Shown here: positions 9,431 through 27,818 of the stretch, piece after piece
How positions within the stretch are numbered: the first letter of the stretch is position 1
Layout of the letters: every line of letters starts with the position of its first letter
Virus record (IMG/VR): IMGVR_UViG_3300042258_000071
Coordinates: 32,001-96,000 of that record
Reading direction: 5' to 3' (one strand)
Length of the DNA stretch: 64,000 nucleotides
From: a virus
Taxonomy: Duplodnaviria; Caudoviricetes
Position numbers and translations under genes: made by a program
The notes under the pieces: generated by a model
Databases searched by the model: none
Told to the model about the DNA's origin: nothing
Seen by the model: only the letters and a program-made list of their open reading frames with translations

Positions 9431-10009
9431 ATGAATGACTTTACATATTACACCATCCTGGGACTCTTTACCCTAGCTCAAATATGTCGAGGACACATCT
9501 CTTTACAATACTGGACAGGCATCAGAACACAAGTTGAAACAGTACACTATTCAGGATGGATCATAACGTCATTTTTATTATGGTGTATTATCCTCTTTAA
9601 CTATGAACCAACCTTTACATATGTTGCTATTATCATAGCAAGTATTAGCACGTTTACATCTCTCCCCTTAAAAGTCTTTAAAGAACTCTATGATGATCAG
9701 TATTTTTATCCTTCAAGAAAGTATATCTATTTAAAACTCACAATGATAAATGTCACGATTTCAGGGATGTTAAGTATTTTTATTGACATATCAACCCATA
9801 GAGCTTTAACCTATCACATCTTAATAACACCTGTTGCAATATTCACATATTTAATACTGCTATTCTTCTATCTACATAAGAGACATCTAAAAAAATATGT
9901 CCCTAAATCTACAATTTATACATCGATATCTCTTTATCATCTTATCACAGCGTATAGTTATTATTATTTAATTCACTATACAGATCCTTTTGTTATTTTA
10001 AGAGGCTAA
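9431..10009 (+). CDS. Polytopic membrane protein, possible paralogue of 8846..9403
   Basis: 192 aa with similar size and hydropathy; CTCCACTAGG plus GGAG RBS upstream. Confidence 0.7.
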   Translation: MNDFTYYTILGLFTLAQICRGHISLQYWTGIRTQVETVHYSGWIITSFLLWCIILFNYEPTFTYVAIIIASISTFTSLPLKVFKELYDDQYFYPSRKYIYLKLTMINVTISGMLSIFIDISTHRALTYHILITPVAIFTYLILLFFYLHKRHLKKYVPKSTIYTSISLYHLITAYSYYYLIHYTDPFVILRG

Positions 10010-18294: not shown

Positions 18295-19740
18295 TTAAGT
18301 ATCAAAATACATGGAGACGACTTCATCCTCAAGAGTGTGCATAACGCGTTCACCAACTCCCATCACAAATGGAGAGTAGATGATACGGTCATTCACAGCA
18401 GTCGCTCCAAAGAACATATCAATATCATCCCCACTCTCTGTCTTGGCCTGACTTGGCATGATAGCCCCGATAACAGTCTTAGCTTGTGCACCAATAACAA
18501 GTTTATCCCCAGGGCCACATTGAAGATCTTCATCGATCATGATCGTGATCATGACTGTATCTTCTTCAAAGTCTACACCCTGATACTTAGTCCCTACAGG
18601 GATACGGTGTGGGGGAAGGTATTGACGTTCTTTAGACGTTCCACGTACCTCTTTACTTTTCTTTAAGAGTTGAGATGATGTTTTCTTAACAAGCTCTTGA
18701 ATAGAAGGGTGTAAGTCTTCAAAGGGACATGCATGATAGACACGGATAGCTGCGATCGTTCCATGATACTTAGCAGTTGGCATGGAGCGGTTAAGGGATG
18801 CTAGGAATTCCATGGTCTCGGGATCATCGATACTGTCCATAGAATTCAAATCTCCCTCCTCCATGATCATCAAATAATCTGTTGTTTCAACAACATCCCC
18901 AACCTTCACGATGTTAGTAAGCAGGGTATTATTTGTAATTGAAATAGTACGAAGATGTGCAGGTGACATGTGAAGACGTTTAGAAAAGTTAGAAGATATT
19001 TCACAAGAATCTTCAATTGTTTCAGATTTCTCAATAAGAGCAATTTTTGCTGTAAGACCATGTTTCCAGTTCACCTGTTTAGAATCAGGATCTTTCTCAA
19101 AGAACCCACTGTTGTAAACGAGGATATCACCCTTCTTAAACTTCTCACCCTCTTTAACATTGAGGACATTGGTCTGTTTAAGATAGGTTCCAGAAACACT
19201 TGTAAAGGATTCCCCAAAGGAGAAGATTTCAAATTGTTCAGATTCTTTATGTTTCTTAGGTGACAGTCTAATGTAAACAACAGGGCCTTCTTTGAGTTCT
19301 CGAAACTCTTTCTGTGTTAACATTGATGTGTCAGGGACATCTTCAAGTGATTTAAAGGGAAGTTTCTCAACAACTTCAAAAGGTGAAGTGTCATTTACAT
19401 TGACAACATTTCCCTGTTTAATCTTAGAAGCATCTTTGTCAGAACGAATCATGTAGATGAAGGTGTTGTTATCATAAGCTTTTTTTATATCGTCTTTCTT
19501 GATATTTAAAGATACTTCTTTAGAAGTTTTAATTTGTTCAAGATCATATTCTAATTTAAGAAGACCTAGCTTCTCATTAATACCAATAACTTTCCCATTA
19601 CGCTTAGCAGCGCATGCAAAATTCTCAGATGGGTAATGTGCAATAACTTGCTCCATACCCGTTCTGATTCGAAGAGTTTCACCTTCTTGAGATGGTACAT
19701 GATGAGAGAGCTGGATAGAACAAAATGACAGGCGTTTCCC
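18295..19740 (-). CDS. rpoB: Virion RNA polymerase beta-like subunit (phiKZ gp178-like), exon 2
   Basis: Begins GKRLSFCSIQLSHHVP (cf. beta DDANRALMG..MQRQAVP). Contains VKEGEKFKKGDIL, EDSCEISS, GDKLV...KTVI and DIDMFF. Confidence 0.88.
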   Translation of the reverse strand, partial: GKRLSFCSIQLSHHVPSQEGETLRIRTGMEQVIAHYPSENFACAAKRNGKVIGINEKLGLLKLEYDLEQIKTSKEVSLNIKKDDIKKAYDNNTFIYMIRSDKDASKIKQGNVVNVNDTSPFEVVEKLPFKSLEDVPDTSMLTQKEFRELKEGPVVYIRLSPKKHKESEQFEIFSFGESFTSVSGTYLKQTNVLNVKEGEKFKKGDILVYNSGFFEKDPDSKQVNWKHGLTAKIALIEKSETIEDSCEISSNFSKRLHMSPAHLRTISITNNTLLTNIVKVGDVVETTDYLMIMEEGDLNSMDSIDDPETMEFLASLNRSMPTAKYHGTIAAIRVYHACPFEDLHPSIQELVKKTSSQLLKKSKEVRGTSKERQYLPPHRIPVGTKYQGVDFEEDTVMITIMIDEDLQCGPGDKLVIGAQAKTVIGAIMPSQAKTESGDDIDMFFGATAVNDRIIYSPFVMGVGERVMHTLEDEVVSMYFDT

Positions 19741-20095
19741 CGTACTATTCCATAAAGGTTCGGTATCTCCTTCATGCGCAGCATAACCTGCAGCTATGGC
19801 TTTCACCATAGACTAGATCATATCTTTACCTTGAGTCATATGACTGTTAGGTAACTCCCATTTCGAGACCCCTTGGTCCTACAGGCTGACAAAGCCTTGA
19901 TCGTTGAACGTTCATCTTAAGGATGTCTCACGACAGTCTTAAGACACTTCGCTGCTGGTTGCCCAATCTTCACATTTTTCAAACTATCACGCTTGTCGTT
20001 ACCAACTACGTTGTAGTATGTAAAGCTCTAAGGGGGTTCTAGCAATTAGAGAGCATTCACTTAAAACTTTTCAGTTAAAAGCGGACAAATAGTTT
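19741..20095 (-). ncRNA. Group I intron (IA-like, 355 nt, no ORF) in the RNAP beta-like gene
   Basis: 5' exon ends in U (GAC GAU) and the intron ends in G. P AAUUGCUAGAA, Q AACCAGCAGC, R GUUCAACGAUCA, S AAGAUAUGAUCU; GAAA-capped P2 and P9; P7.1/P7.2 hairpins. Splicing gives in-frame TQDD-GKRLSF. Confidence 0.9.
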
Positions 20096-23000
20096 ATCGT
20101 CTTGAGTGCCACCTGGCATAAGAAGAGCTGGTGTACTTAGAATGTTAGAAGGTTCTAAATCGCTAGAAGCCTGCTGTTCACCATACATCCCTCGGGTGTT
20201 AATAATGCGAGGGTTTGCAGACATGTAGGCATTAAAAGCAACTTTTCCAGAATCAGGTACAGACTCAGAAAGAATTCCTACACCATCTTTAGGATACTGA
20301 CGATCCGTAATCACAAATGATTGTTGCGACCGACCACCGGCACCCCCATATGTTGTTTGTGTTTTAGATTTGATATCATGAATGGGGTTAATACTGTCAA
20401 CTGGTTGTAGAGTAGGATCTTGAACAATAGATAGGAAAACTGCTTCAGGGTTGATAGAGAAACTCTTATTAGGATCACGACTAGCTTGATATCGAGCAAA
20501 TTCACGTGCCATAGCGTTATAAACGAAATATGGGAATCGTTCATATCCGCGTGTTCTAAAGTTTTCTAAACTAGAAGCATCTTTTGCTTCCACTGTTGAG
20601 AGCATTTCTGTTGCTCGATACAGGAGACCCTTAACTGTAGTAGGTTCCCCCATGCTAATCAAAACTTCCCGTGTAATAGGATCTACAAATAGATCAAAAA
20701 AACTGTTGATCCCTTTTAGAATATTTGTAGAGTGACCTGCATCAGAGAGTAGTGTGAAGTAAGTATCGACGATATCAAAATCGTCAAGATTCCAAGCTCT
20801 CGTTTCAAAGCGCTTAAGGCCACTTAAAATAAGAGACCCTGTAAGAGGGTATCTTGAAAAGACAAGTTTCCCATCTTTAAAGGGGATCATGATGTCATCT
20901 AGTTTAACAATAGCCCGTTTACCTGTTGGGTAAAACCTATAGGGGTGTTTAATATCTTTAAGAAGTGTTGAGAGACCAAATCGATATCCTAAGAAAAATG
21001 CAATCGGCCATGATTTATCTTGAAGTTTAATCTCAACCCATTCAGAAGGTGTTTTAGAAAGAGGAATCTGATCCCCATACAAAGTATTTAGAAGCTCTCG
21101 TATGGTAAACATCTCAACTGGGTGATCTTTGTCTTTGACACTGATAACGCGAATGATGTTATCTTTACCATAGAACATACTGTCACCATTCTTCTCACCA
21201 CAGAAAACCCCATATTTTTCTTCTAGAGGTTCACGGTACTTTTGAAGGAGACTACTTTGGTCTATTGCTTCAGTTGCAAGTTGAAGAGTTGTTGCAGTAA
21301 GACGATTTTTATAATTAAATGTGAAATGATAATCGTTTAATTTAAGACGACCATAACTCCCCATGAGGACCCCATAATCATACGGGACCTTATCTTCGGT
21401 AGAACTTGTTCCAAATTCAAGATAAATAAGACCTGCCTTCTTAAGAGAGGAGATGTATTTCTTGATACTAGATTTAAAGCTATATGCTGCGCGTTGAGTT
21501 CTTTCTACAAGTGCTTTATTAAAATTAGATGAAAGGTTAACACGATGAGGACTTACTTTGCAGATCGGTAGATTGATCTGTTGCTTCGTCATTCGATAGT
21601 CCACCCCATTGACCCTAATGGTTCCTTCCGGACTCACAATAGGTAGTCTAAAACGACACGTATGTCGCTTTCCCTTGGGATCTTTAAAAGTTATGGTGTA
21701 ATGCCTAATATAATTAAACTCAGTAATTTCATCTTCTTCTTTAACGTCTTGAAGTATCATCCCAACGCCACTAAAAGAAGATAAAACAAGGGCAACATCT
21801 CGGTTGAGAGATTCTCGAATATAAACATTGTCAAAATCCATAATAGAAGATTTCGTCATGGATTTATCTTCAACATAATCTTCTAAGAAAGAGAGTTCTA
21901 CTGATGGATCAGTGTTAGGTTCCGTGTTGAGATATGACGCAATGCTTCTACCAGCAAGATCGATATTGGCATAATGGTTCTCAGCTTCTAAGACCGTTTC
22001 TTTCTGTTTAGAAGTGAGGTTAAGATTCGGATCATTTAAGATGCTTTTAAGTGATGTTGAAATATATTCATTGTGGTCTGGAGCATCCACATAAGAACTT
22101 ACAGGAAGAGGGTCTTCTGGGAGTAAAGATTTAGTGTCAATTGTTGAGAGGTCTGTACTTTGATAAAGAGTGTGTTCAATGGGGAGATCTGTTGGGTCTA
22201 CCGGAACATCTTCTACGTCATCGGCGTCCTCCATGACATCCGTTAAAGTAGAAGTTACACTATCTGCAAATTTATCAATATCTTCATCTGTAAAGTCATC
22301 GTCTAAATTTTGAGTAGTGTCGTCCTCATTTCTAGGTTCAGATTGATTATCTTTCTTTTCTTTAAGGTCTTCAAGAAGGTCAGCTGCTTTAAACTTCATG
22401 ACGTTAACATGTCGAATCATCATGATGTTGTCAGTTTTATTAGGCAACATTAAAGGGAGATCACCAAGATTATAGATGATACCATCTGATGACTGTCCAC
22501 ATGTTAAAATGACATGGATGCGATCAAGATGATCTTTTATATCAGGAATCTTAAAAAGGGAGGTTGTAGCATTCTGAGTTACAATCCCTAGCAAATGGAT
22601 CATGTAGTAATACGAGGGATCCCCTACAACCTTAAGGGATGCAGGCGTAATTTCCTCAAAAGCTCTTAGGAACTGTTCACGTTTAAGGGGTTCTGCTGAA
22701 ATAGGAATTTGAATGAACTGGAGTTTCTCAGGATGACTTTCTGCAATTTTAAGTATTTGATACAACATGGATTTCAAAAGAAGATCCATCTTACGATAAG
22801 CTACAAGTCGACCTGTCATGTAAGTATACAAGAGCGGGTTGTAACTAAAAATGGATAATGCATTTTTACGAGATAAGATCTGTTTTACATCTGTCATACG
22901 TTTTGTAAGTTTACTTGTCTGATTGAATTTTTGAATTTGACTGTTAAATTTTACAGCATTGTGAATGTAGTTTCCAATTGGTGCTAACTGTTTATCATCT

Positions 23001-23275
23001 TTTGGAGGGAGTTCTGTTACATGATGGGCATAGACCGGAAATTCTTCATTTACAATAAAGGGATTAGAAACATCGATTGAGATAGCGCCAGACTCGGTTA
23101 AAAACAATTTATCTGCAATATGCAGTACACTATCAAAGGGAAGTTGTGCATTGCTAAAGTCTGAGATTTTCTTAGGAAGATCCGATCTCCGCCACGCCAT
23201 ATACCCCCTACGAAACACTGGGTACTGCATTCTTTCTTGTGCGATCTGATCACGTTCTAAAATGTTGTCATCCAT
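20096..23275 (-). CDS. rpoB: Virion RNA polymerase beta-like subunit, exon 1 (spliced product about 1541 aa)
   Basis: Start ATG 23275 with an AGGAG RBS. Contains GTIRVNG, QQINLPICKV, INPIHDIK, TYGGAGGRS, SESVPDSGKV and ALLMPGGTQDD. Confidence 0.88.
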
Positions 23276-23364
23276 AGTTATACTCCTATTAAAATATATA
23301 CCTACACATAAAAGTATAGGGGAAGCATCATACCATACATCGGTGCGTGTCATCTATATTTAGA

Positions 23365-23403: not shown

Positions 23404-23967
23404 ATGAACGTTTGGAATTGGATTAAATCTTTCACTAAACAAAATGAGGGGGTCCCAAAATTTATCGCTAATCCTCATAACCAAAAAGTTCCTGAGCAAG
23501 AAATTTTTCAGGAACTTGAGGCCGTAACTTCTCAGTTCCCACTAATACTCAAAGCCGATGGTGATGTTTCAAAACGTTCACCGATATATCTCACTCTTCA
23601 ACAGGCGAATTTTACTGAAGATGATCTTGGAAATCCTGTATCTTCCAGTGTGATCTTGGAAAAGATGGGGAGGGTCCCTATTTTAAATATATTTGATCAA
23701 ACAGATATAATCATTTCCAAAAATTACCTCAAGATTGGAAAGTTGGCAAATGATTCATTGCTTATTCGAGTCAATTGCCGAATCAAACTTGAGGGTTCTA
23801 ATGAAGACATGTCTGATCACCTTACGATGGTGGTCCCTCCCTCCCGTAAAGAGGACGTGCACGATGTTCTCATTACATATGCCGGTAAGCATCTGGAAGG
23901 TGGAATCTCCGACATCAAATGGGAAAAACGCGTTCTTAACGTTCTTAAAGCATTACCCACAACTTGA
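23404..23967 (+). CDS. Hypothetical early protein
   Basis: 187 aa; AAGGAG RBS. Confidence 0.75.
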   Translation: MNVWNWIKSFTKQNEGVPKFIANPHNQKVPEQEIFQELEAVTSQFPLILKADGDVSKRSPIYLTLQQANFTEDDLGNPVSSSVILEKMGRVPILNIFDQTDIIISKNYLKIGKLANDSLLIRVNCRIKLEGSNEDMSDHLTMVVPPSRKEDVHDVLITYAGKHLEGGISDIKWEKRVLNVLKALPTT

Positions 23968-23970
23968 AAC

Positions 23971-24006
23971 ATACAAGCATGGTGGGATTTCCCACCATGC
24001 TTGTAT
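23971..24006. terminator. Long palindromic stem-loop
   Basis: ATACAAGCATGGTGGGA-TT-TCCCACCATGCTTGTAT. Confidence 0.7.
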
Positions 24007-24042
24007 TTATGCATTTGCAGCACCAATGACGTATGGAGAACT

Positions 24043-24300
24043 ATGGGTTTAATGTCATATAAGGAGAGTGACTCAACAGACTCTGATAGTTATGACCTTA
24101 ACTTGAGGATATCTGAGCTTATATTGTTTTACAAATTTTTAATGAAATATCCAACACTAAACCCTTCCATTGATCAGTATATCCATGATTGTGAAAGGAT
24201 CGACTCTTTGAAATTTATCATCCCATCTGAACTCTATAATCATGCGACAGCCATATTAAATAACGTGGCGCAGGAACATGGGTTCTTCTTCGAAAGGTAA
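24043..24300 (+). CDS. Small hypothetical protein
   Basis: GGAG upstream of ATG 24043/24052. Confidence 0.6.
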   Translation: MGLMSYKESDSTDSDSYDLNLRISELILFYKFLMKYPTLNPSIDQYIHDCERIDSLKFIIPSELYNHATAILNNVAQEHGFFFER

Positions 24301-24306
24301 TCTCTT

Positions 24307-25224
24307 ATGTCAGCATTTTCAACCATGTCTAAAGTAGCAGCTGGTGCAACCGCATTCACCGGGGTCTATTATGGCTTCAAAGTCGGAAGTTATATTTTTA
24401 AAGAAAATACGTTCCGGAGTATGTCAAATGAAATATACTGGGAGAATCTTAAGAAAATATTAACAATAATATTTTCCGCATCATCTCGCACGGGGGTGAC
24501 TCTTCCCGATGGATTATGGGTTGAAACCATCAAACTTGCGTGGATAAGGAGTCTTGGAGATGGATTTGCGCCTAAAACCAACCCGTCAGTGCAAGAACAG
24601 CGGGTAATTGCGGTTACGCTCGTCGAGGAAATCTTCGAGAAAATCATCGAGAAAATTGAGCTTAAGAGTGCATATGAGAAAATCAGTTATGCCCATAAGG
24701 GTCTCTCTAACACATCGTGCCCAGCACCCCATGGGTGGCAGGGTTTCATCGATGAGTTCTTTACCGAGAAGGGTTATGAGATTCCTGTAAATGAGCAAGG
24801 CCCTTATTGGGGGCAGCTTGAGTTCATTTATGAGATCCTTGTAGCTGCAACACCGCGTTCGCAGGTCGTGCTAAACGATGGTGCTTGGGAGGGGATCTTG
24901 GGTATGGTTCTTGAAAATATGACACCTGAAGATCAGGAACTTCATGCCGATCCAAGGAGTCATCGATTGCTCCACATTGCTCTTATTGAGCATGTCTACG
25001 AACGCTTGATCAAAAATGTCGGTCTCAATGTTGCGTATAACCGAATTTGCTATGCGCATAAAAATCTTAATGACAAGTCTTGTCCGGCACATTGCGGCTG
25101 GGATAAGTTTATCGAAACCTTCTTTGAAGAGAAAGGTTTGAAATTCGAATCTGACGACGACATATCACCCCCATCAAACAAAGGTCTTCATGAGACCGTA
25201 TCACGAGGAGGTTCCTCATCATGA
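24307..25224 (+). CDS. Membrane-anchored protein with a tandemly duplicated ~120-aa domain
   Basis: N-terminal hydrophobic stretch, then YAHKGLSNTSCPAPHGWQGFIDEFFTEKG and YAHKNLNDKSCPAHCGWDKFIETFFEEKG. Confidence 0.75.
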   Translation: MSAFSTMSKVAAGATAFTGVYYGFKVGSYIFKENTFRSMSNEIYWENLKKILTIIFSASSRTGVTLPDGLWVETIKLAWIRSLGDGFAPKTNPSVQEQRVIAVTLVEEIFEKIIEKIELKSAYEKISYAHKGLSNTSCPAPHGWQGFIDEFFTEKGYEIPVNEQGPYWGQLEFIYEILVAATPRSQVVLNDGAWEGILGMVLENMTPEDQELHADPRSHRLLHIALIEHVYERLIKNVGLNVAYNRICYAHKNLNDKSCPAHCGWDKFIETFFEEKGLKFESDDDISPPSNKGLHETVSRGGSSS

Positions 25225-25409
25225 ATTTTGCATTCTGGTTCGTCTTTCTCGGACTGATGCCTGCCCTCGCCATTTTCATCTTTGAGACAGTGTGCTGGGT
25301 ATTGCGGCGCATCAATCGTGACGATGCGAATGACGATGTCGAACATGCCGATGAGGCATATTTAAAAGAGTCCCTACTCTTGAAGAATTCTACGTTCTTC
25401 AGAAAATAG
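25221..25409 (+). CDS. Small membrane protein
   Basis: 62 aa; N-terminal TM; ATGA overlap with the previous gene; GAGGAGG RBS. Confidence 0.65.
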   Translation: MNFAFWFVFLGLMPALAIFIFETVCWVLRRINRDDANDDVEHADEAYLKESLLLKNSTFFRK

Positions 25410-25416
25410 GGAACCC

Positions 25417-25449
25417 ATATGGGGGACCCTTTCTTAGGGTCCCCCATAT
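25417..25449 (+). terminator. Stem-loop with U-tract
   Basis: ATATGGGGGACCCT-TTCTT-AGGGTCCCCCATAT followed by a T run. Confidence 0.75.
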
Positions 25450-25475
25450 TTTTTTTCAATGGTATGATACGAGAG

Positions 25476-25670
25476 ATGCAGCTCGTCCACTTCTATATGT
25501 ATCGATCCGACATGACACCTCAAATTCTTGCGGTCCATATCGCTTTTATATTGCTGTTTCTAGGATTTATAGGATTCTTTGTAGCAATGATTTTTTACGC
25601 ATATAAGAGCGGTGATATAGAAGAGTTTTACACTGACCTTCTCAAGTTCTTTTTCCTTAGAAAGACATAG
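25476..25670 (+). CDS. Small membrane protein
   Basis: One long hydrophobic segment; start uncertain (25476 or 25512). Confidence 0.5.
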   Translation: MQLVHFYMYRSDMTPQILAVHIAFILLFLGFIGFFVAMIFYAYKSGDIEEFYTDLLKFFFLRKT

Positions 25671-25898: not shown

Positions 25899-26261
25899 CC
25901 TTTATATTCCATAAAGGATCGGTCGCCCCTTATGCGCAGCATAACCTGCAGCTATGACTTTCATCATAGAGTAGACTATATCTTCACTATAGGTTGTGTG
26001 GTGTAACCCTTAAGTGTCTCCTATTTCGGGTCCCTTGACCCTACTCCCCGCTACGGGATAGTCGTTGAACGTTCACCATACTACTGTCGTCACGACATGT
26101 ATAAGGCGCTTCGCTGCTGATCATCCATTGTAACATTTGATACCTTTTTGAACTATCACGCTCACCTTTTCAGGTCACGTTGTAGTGTATCAACTTTAGG
26201 ACTTTCCAGCAATTAAGGAGATATCATCTTAGCTATTTCTAACTAAGTGGACTATCAATTA
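25899..26261 (-). ncRNA. Group I intron (IA-like, 363 nt, no ORF) inside the RNAP catalytic motif
   Basis: Exon ends GCU GAU and the intron ends ...AAAGG. P AAUUGCUGGAAA, Q GAUCAGCAGC, R GUUCAACGACUA, S AAGAUAUAGUCU; P3 UCUCCU/AGGAGA; a plausible P1 with U.G at the splice site. Confidence 0.92.
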
Positions 26262-27818
26262 ATCAGCTCCAAGCCCCCCAAGGGCACTTGTATGAACAAT
26301 CGTACTATCTAAAAATCCGTCATTAGCATCTAAAGATGGATAATGTGGATACTCAGCATCGTCCTCACCTGTAATGAGGTCATACAGTTTAACGGTGCGA
26401 GAGTTGGATGTTGAGTTAAGGTGTATTTTAGCAGGATAACATGATCCATCTTCAATAGCAGGGTACCGCGTCACCATAGCGTATTTATTAAATGTGGCGA
26501 TATACGTTGCAAGATATACGATCTCAGCCCATGTGATGGGGCGGAGTTTTGTACGATCAACTTTTTTACCTAAATTCTTCTCAAGATCGCCAAGACTCCT
26601 AACGATGGAAATTCGATCACCTTGATCATATACCAAGCAAAGGTAGAAAGGTTTCTTATCACGATTATAAATAGTGACAGCTGACCGTCGAACATCTTCA
26701 TTTGAGAACCGAGTTAACCACTTGTTAATACCTGTCCTTGTAACGAATTTATCTTTTTCTAATTGAGAGATTTCTGTATATACAAGATTTAAAGTTTTAG
26801 GATCAGTGAGAGGAACATTAACCTCATCACTCTCTCCTAAGATGGGGGTGAAAAACGCTGTCTTAAGATGGTGGATAACGAAGGGCTCCATCCCTTTGCA
26901 GGATTGATAAAGTCCTACCATAACTTCATCAGGTTTAAGAGACCGTGGATCATCAGGAGAATCCATCACATAACTTGCAGCACTTAGAACATTACGAGTT
27001 CCAAATGCCACTGAACGTGATCCATACCCACCATTTTGCATGAATCCTCGTTTACCAGTTTGGAAGTTCTCAAGGTAATCATAAACTTCAATAGCTTTCT
27101 CTTGAAGTTTATATCGAACTTGATTATAAATAGGGTTAACTGTTTTTTCTGGAATAGATAAACTTAAAGATATCATACTCCGATAGAGCTTGTTTATTTC
27201 ATCTTGCACCATGCGCGCACCAGACTCGATTCGAATATCTCGAAATCCTGCAGGAAGAACGATGTACTTATTAATAAGAGAAACCTCTCGATACTGATTT
27301 AAGAGGGTGACTCGGTTTTCACGTTTGAGGGATTCTGTTAAAGGAAATTCAATTTCATGATAGTGCGATAAGAAGAACGCATAACCTGTTCCGGCATCTT
27401 CAACATCCTCTGGATCCCCAACAACACGTTCAAAATTTTTTATCTCAGAGTTAAATGTTGCATAAACACGCCCTGCTAAAATGTCGTCATACAGAGAACT
27501 TATTTTGATGAGATTTTTATAAATAATAGGAGCGATGATGTTACTGCTTAGAGGGAGGAACCCAAATTTCTTCATGCGATCATCTGAACCCACTGCCCCA
27601 AAGATTTCTTCTGAGAAGAGACCGTCTTTATGAAAGAGCGTTGTTGATGGTTCTAAGACATCAAATGACGTTACCGCTGCAATAATATTTTTCTGAACAA
27701 AGTCATCTACATCCATAACGCGGATGTTAAAAGGTCCATAACCGGAATTTTTCATATTCGATAAATCTTCAAGCCCTTTAGACCGATTCACAATATCGAA
27801 TGGAATTTGCTGTACCAT
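26262..27818 (-). CDS. rpoC: Virion RNA polymerase beta'-like subunit (phiKZ gp180-like), exon 1 (spliced product about 581 aa)
   Basis: DGLFSEEIFG, VLPAGFRD, GKRGFMQ, GTRNVLSA and VTRYPA; ends GLGAD at the intron. Confidence 0.9.

Follow-up and report, generated by a model that had tools for sequence, protein, structure and literature searches.

A probable self-splicing group I intron lacking an open reading frame in the virion-type RNA polymerase beta gene of an uncultured jumbo phage

In an uncultured jumbo phage with a genome of 236 kb, the beta gene of the virion-type RNA polymerase is very probably split by a self-splicing group I intron, one which is 355 nt in length, of the phage IA kind, and without an open reading frame (ORF) of its own. 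The intron is found in what here will be called the window, i.e., the whole 64,000-nucleotide stretch of DNA that was analysed, itself part of a 236,443-bp IMG/VR virus record which possesses terminal repeats and is judged to be a complete genome. Supplying the evidence are the intron's fold, covariation within that fold, an exact exon junction, an insertion site held in common with other phages, and homology with the introns found at that site. Positions are collected in Table 1, and a caret is used throughout to mark a splice site.

The interrupted gene and its junction

Both exons match a single protein family, PHROG 3148 (‘RNA polymerase beta subunit’), and they do so over consecutive ranges: profile positions 2-1050 of 1424 for exon 1 (E 2e-174) and 1118-1420 of 1424 for exon 2 (E 8e-86). 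Exon 1 starts with the ATG at 23275, and AGGAG lies ahead of it at 23287-23283; an in-frame ATG found further upstream, at 23353, is without a ribosome-binding site. Exon 1 ends at 20096 with ...ACU CAA GAC GAU, i.e., ...LLMPGGTQDD as protein, while exon 2 begins at 19740 with GGG AAA CGC CUG UCA UUU and reaches its stop at 18295. The spliced product thus is 1060 + 481 = 1541 aa.

The host gene corresponds to PhiKZ gp178 and to PhiPA3 gp211/209. Among cultured phages, those nearest to it are jumbo phages with about 30% protein identity, and several of their records indeed name the homologue a virion-associated RNA polymerase beta subunit. Megablast of the whole beta gene against the phage collection gave no match. 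Neither exon was matched by Pfam or by a single-sequence PDB search, and a family profile was needed. A phage nuclear-shell protein was also sought (PA7 protein; PHROG 4795) without a match, in searches that had no positive control. The interval that separates the beta gene from the short final exon of beta' contains, at 23404-25670 (+), ORFs of 187, 99, 305, and 83 aa, located on the strand opposite to that of both polymerase genes.

Removal of the intron joins GAU^GGG, and thereby ...TQDD^GKRLSF..., in frame, the predicted ligated RNA reading GACGAU^GGGAAACGC. A preliminary description of this DNA had joined two separately annotated ORFs in just this way, after subtraction of 355 nt and to give about 1541 aa, and the junction so produced is that of uninterrupted homologues. 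That is, 58 of 120 homologues in the protein collection extend far beyond the motif and, among those sequences where the motif search landed on the correct segment, uninterrupted homologues read ...(Q/N)DD^(G/A/P/S)KRxx(F/Y)xSIQLSHHVP, equivalent to the predicted TQDD^GKRLSFCSIQLSHHVP. A 50-member family profile, compared with bacterial beta chains (E 1e-11), places LmPgatqDDkkR on bacterial LIPFLEHDDANR, followed by the NMQRQAVP segment, such that DD-x-x-R along with what lies downstream is aligned to EHDDANR..NMQRQAVP, as expected of a beta subunit. Since the profile aligns DDkkR on DDANR, the earlier equation of the junction segment with the HDDANR of beta is right. With regard to the associated claim, that the arginine of HDDANR contacts the NTP, the motif arginine is E. 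coli beta R678, one of a cluster of basic residues that take part in binding of the substrate and in catalysis (PMC5856549).

Left unspliced, the exon 1 frame is ended by an in-frame UAA at 20077-20075 (-), six codons into the intron. Gene callers therefore are found to list exon 1 as a separate protein of 1066 aa (P0003), which ends in DDKLFVRF, the last six of these residues being intron encoded. In addition, because the ATG at 19809 (-), inside of P9, opens the frame of exon 2, a 504-aa ORF is called there, with intron RNA supplying its 23 N-terminal residues. Among PhiKZ-like phages it is normal for RNA polymerase subunits to be split, and this, together with those two open frames, is what may be said for a beta subunit that truly is split, with the intron an inactive relic and with the 1066- and 504-aa halves assembling as they do in other jumbo-phage polymerases. 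We give this alternative little credence, however. The break falls within the active-site DD-xKR, which is contiguous in all uninterrupted homologues, all of the core helices are intact and covarying, no ribosome-binding site is seen on inspection ahead of ATG 19809, and the 23 extra N-terminal residues are P9-P9.2 RNA, which is common to introns residing in other genes and in other frames. Truncation of the active site in this manner is a widespread artefact of the automatic annotation of jumbo-phage polymerases, since about 45 of 103 homologues with a recognisable motif (protein collection, public metagenomes) stop no more than a few residues from DD.

Table 1. Features of the interrupted beta gene and of the group I introns of the genome (window positions unless a record locus is given)
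Feature	Position	Strand	Details	Basis
Exon 1, virion-type RNA polymerase beta gene	20096-23275	-	1060 aa from ATG	Translation, PHROG 3148, AGGAG
Exon 2, same beta gene	18295-19740	-	481 aa plus stop; starts GKRLSFCSIQLSHHVP	Translation, PHROG 3148
Group I intron, ORF-less	19741-20095 (355 nt)	-	IA-like, with P7.1/P7.2	Rfam RF00028, covariation
P1	20084-20098	-	Exon GAU and intron AAA against UUUGUC; guide GUC 20086-20084	Sequence
P2 hairpin	20058-20083	-	GAAA loop	Fold, alignment (helix 1)
P4-P5-P5abc-P6 domain	19908-20044	-	GUAA and GUGA tetraloops; one A.C mismatch in P4	Helices 3-10
P7, 5' strand	19898-19902	-	GAUCA; first G pairs with C19816, invariant	Helix 11, 100% paired
P7.1 and P7.2 hairpins	19866-19897	-	Between P7 and P3'; all 10 pairs with double changes	Helices 12, 13
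P7, 3' strand	19816-19820	-	UGAUC	Rfam match, alignment
P9 hairpin	19794-19811	-	GAAA loop; end of Rfam model	Helix 16, 100% paired
3' extension	19741-19793	-	P9.1, P9.2, tail GGAAUAGUACG, terminal G 19741	Helices 17-19 covary
Intron in virion (vRNAP) beta' gene	25899-26261	-	Interrupts Mg-binding Asp motif	Flank reading
Intron in second beta gene			Site GDKxxxRxG^KG	Flank reading
Intron in second beta' gene			Site NPSI^QKG, NRAPTLH segment	Flank reading
Intron in topoisomerase gene			Site IMTDAD^	Flank reading
Three introns outside of window (L029, L030, L031)	G000:C1:10922-11364, 104658-105020, 231171-231553	+

Intron fold, covariation, and splice sites

The group I model of Rfam, RF00028, matches 20105..19794(-) at full length (model positions 1-253), with 71.3 bits against a cut-off of 50 (E 4e-16); the sole other match to this model in the window, 26270..25952(-), is to a second group I intron. 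Within the 355 nt there is no ORF of 60 aa or more. The preliminary description had placed the intron at 19741-20100, of which the former boundary stands but the latter takes in five bases of exon. The last 53 nt (19793..19741) lie past the Rfam model. As this extension, with its tail of GGAAUAnnnnG, is common to all five introns of the genome, and as it covaries, the true 3' end is G19741. A 3' splice site located instead at the Rfam end (G19794) was rejected, being out of frame and running into a stop.

A secondary structure was written from the window intron (P2, P3, P4, P5-P5abc, P6-P6ab, the P7 pseudoknot, P7.1, P7.2, P8, P9, P9.1, and P9.2) and was considered over an alignment of 15 introns. 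These are the five from this genome, five ORF-less introns found at the same site in IMG/VR relatives, and the cores of five endonuclease-bearing introns also from that site, with PhiPA3 and Serratia phage 2050HW among the latter. Three same-site introns (L013, L014, and L016) are below the Rfam cut-off, yet their cores can be aligned; another locus, L022, was excluded given an 814-nt gap and a poorly placed exon 2. A plain minimum-free-energy fold was not used as the structure, as it shows local hairpins, cannot show the pseudoknot, and takes a shifted P1.

Standard pairs fill 88.5% of cells over the 15 introns versus 36-44% if 3' partners are slid by one to three columns, 76 of 101 pairs display changes on both sides, and no measure is reached by any of 500 shuffles, a margin which is large even though the structure, in being derived from one of the aligned sequences, is somewhat favoured. 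By helix, pairing stands at 94% for P3, 96% for P4, 100% for P7, and 93% for P8, and double changes are found in all helices but the two-pair P6. Hairpins P7.1 and P7.2, when situated between P7 and the 3' strand of P3, define subgroup IA in the classification of Michel and Westhof, and it is because both are present that the intron is placed in that subgroup. It possesses as well two further features of group I introns, a terminal G and an invariant G-C pair in P7 for guanosine binding.

The preliminary description noted that P7 reads GAUCA/UGAUC rather than the usual GACUA/UAGUC, a double compensatory change, and this is confirmed both in the sequence and in the alignment. The first two pairs of P7, G-C and A-U, are invariant (15/15). 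At the third and fourth pairs, 11 of the 15 introns have CG/UA and the other four have UA/CG, never mixed. Besides the window intron, GAUCA/UGAUC is carried by one other of the five genome introns and by L013 and L014, both of which are from the same site and bear an endonuclease. The earlier argument from P7, that the ribozyme is under selection, stands, but over these aligned sequences the variant is a recurrent state of the intron family rather than any peculiarity of the window copy.

The 5' splice site is where the preliminary description requires correction. P1, written as GAU^AAA-cua-UUUGUC, consists of six pairs (G-C, A-U, U.G, A-U, A-U, A-U), with the wobble, U20096.G20086, exactly at the splice site. 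An absence of a clean U.G pair from P1 had been reported, along with a consequently atypical 5' splice site, but the wobble is present and canonical, and the guide, as GUC(C), is invariant or nearly so across the 15 introns. By inspection, every same-site intron is able to pair this guide with the GAU that ends the exon. The error probably came about because the guide also pairs with GAC, one codon upstream. P10, by inspection, offers at most three G.U pairs.

In its splice-competent form P1 is a short, weak helix (-1.8 kcal/mol), and with the guide on the preceding GAC codon it would be, in isolation, 2.2 kcal/mol more stable (-4.0 kcal/mol). As a 3-nt shift also keeps the frame, it might be supposed that 5' splicing occurs three nucleotides upstream, with GUC on the codon of the first Asp and with a product one Asp shorter, or that the two sites compete. 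This supposition deserves still less credence than that of a split subunit. Group I ribozymes strongly prefer a wobble at the cleavage position and disfavour C-G, which is what the shifted register would supply; both Asp residues of the DD motif are kept in nearly all beta homologues; and all same-site introns are inserted after the second Asp codon.

Weakness of P1 and P10, the mismatch in P4, and the missing endonuclease ORF could be read, from a different perspective, as signs of a degenerate, non-splicing intron within a decaying gene, i.e., a polymerase pseudogene. To this we assign the least credence of all. The two exons each form a long open frame in which conserved motifs are present, the record, with its terminal repeats, is judged to be a complete genome, and the catalytic core is conserved over the 15 introns, J8/7 and the invariant G-C of P7 included.

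The interrupting RNA is predicted from its sequence, then, to be an active intron. The pre-mRNA would fold into a group I core in which guide GUC pairs with the last bases of the exon, GAU, such that the splice site is marked by a U.G wobble. The first attack, by an external guanosine, would fall after U20096, and the second, by the freed exon, after terminal G19741. The ligated message, GAC GAU^GGG AAA CGC, would be translated into one protein of 1541 aa, with the active-site ..TQDD-GKR.. restored. Translating ribosomes could disturb this folding, as the exon 1 frame of unspliced RNA crosses the guide into P2 before reaching a stop.

A homing site shared with other jumbo phages

PhiPA3 carries a putative group I intron with an HNH homing endonuclease, gp210 (Birkholz et al. 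2024, Science, PMC11620839). That intron is positioned directly behind a pair of conserved Asp residues in the vRNAP beta subunit, the second of which is E. coli D675, and gp210 nicks both the intron-less site and the homologous site of PhiKZ gp178 (PMC11620839). In PhiPA3 the sole match to the window beta is gp211 (35% identity), which adjoins the gp180-like beta' gene; gene order is gp211, gp210 endonuclease, and gp209; and the insertion is at the identical position. The novelty implied for this site by the preliminary description consequently was too high, with the site published for PhiPA3 (PMC11620839) as well as occupied in many relatives.

Beyond PhiPA3 (1352 nt), ten loci possess insertions of 337-1511 nt at the identical nucleotide, i.e., after the second Asp codon, GAT, just as in the window (355 nt). 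Six of these hold an RF00028 match over the cut-off. In Serratia phage 2050HW the insertion is 1371 nt; in the other loci it is 337 (L006), 444 (L009 and L020 both), 1362 (L012), 1452 (L013), 1511 (L014), 406 (L016), 380 (L021), and 355 nt (L023). In all same-site cases except L013 the 3' end of the insertion is a G immediately before exon 2. IMG/VR contexts of truncated homologues came from a single-protein query (3 loci) and from an alignment query (20 loci). Nine other IMG/VR loci are uninterrupted at this site, and about half of metagenomic relatives are occupied. The related IMG/VR contig L009 also has a tRNA gene (9537-9608, -), some 1.5 kb downstream from its interrupted beta gene.

The window and PhiPA3 introns are alike in host gene, in position (after GAT and before xKR), in helices, in GUC guide, and in their P9.1/P9.2 tail. 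They differ in that the 1352 nt of PhiPA3 include HNH gp210, just after the 5' splice site, versus an ORF-less 355 nt in the window. Their cores are 59% identical, and the PhiPA3 P7 is of the common form, GACUA/UAGUC. The HNH endonuclease characteristic of a gp210-type intron is missing from the window intron, and a homologue of gp210 was sought in the genome and none was found.

With 2050HW (Moabitevirus) the insertion position is shared, RF00028 is matched at 82.6 bits in the interval separating the two beta ORFs, and a 105-nt stretch is 82% identical to the window intron. The 2050HW insertion differs, however, in bearing an endonuclease ORF, and the record annotates three separate genes there (gp100, the gp101 endonuclease, and gp102) but no intron. 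More distant are the IA introns of Staphylococcus phage Twort nrdE/orf142 and T4 td, which are similar in fold class, having P7.1/P7.2, and in interrupting an essential gene at a codon that is conserved and belongs to the active site. Bases 43-157 of the window intron are similar by BLAST to the Twort nrdE intron. The host gene differs, though, as does the addition in the window intron of a P9.1/P9.2 3' extension past the Rfam model.

On these sequence comparisons, the window intron very probably is a member of the lineage residing at the identical site in PhiPA3, in 2050HW, and in many metagenomic relatives. The site itself is a common and already described homing site, of which the window copy is an endonuclease-free form. 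As it is missing an endonuclease, the intron probably is not mobile by itself. It does, like other intron-plus alleles, split the DNA sequence that such endonucleases would cut, and thereby may protect the gene from cleavage.

Five introns in one genome

RF00028 matches five times in this genome, all five introns being ORF-less and four of them interrupting RNA polymerase subunit genes (Table 1). Four of the five follow GAU and have GUC as guide; the fifth follows ACU and has GGU. The window beta intron is 81% identical to that of the second beta' gene and 68% identical to that of the vRNAP beta' gene, versus only 52-67% to same-site introns of other phages. In a maximum-likelihood tree in which other phages were represented by same-site introns only, the five genome introns are split from the ten same-site introns with 97% ultrafast bootstrap.

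Identity among the five is a mosaic. The second-beta' intron matches the window intron at 46 of 48 positions in P7-P7.2 and 48 of 52 in the tail, and matches the topoisomerase intron at 36 of 36 in P8, with a 50-nt identical run. Mosaic and grouping, as patterns of sequence, together suggest either that the intron copies have recombined or that introns have spread inside the genome. One might go further and view the five as a single lineage which has spread in-genome to GAU^-type sites without a homing endonuclease, e.g., by GUC-guided reverse splicing, with copies later exchanging segments. The beta intron then would not be a PhiPA3-type descendant but instead an independent re-occupation of the site. 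This is a tentative proposal, and one that we consider rather doubtful. About 1.8 kb past the window end is a 409-aa open frame with an HNH_3 domain (28.1 bits; L032, G000:C1:97750-97842, +). It is the only match in the genome to HNH_3, which was the sole HNH family searched, and it is free-standing, adjoining none of the five introns.

For annotation, the consequence is that the two ORFs should be joined as one 1541-aa virion RNA polymerase beta subunit, a gene which, as currently called, appears truncated in the middle of its active site. For phage biology, the window intron is a further instance, now without its endonuclease, of an occupied homing site whose part in the competition between co-infecting jumbo phages has been demonstrated. 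The one aspect that is mildly novel is the pattern formed by the genome's five introns, which are related, mosaic, and all ORF-less, and of which four are in polymerase subunit genes. That set could offer a natural system in which to examine the persistence and movement of introns without an endonuclease.
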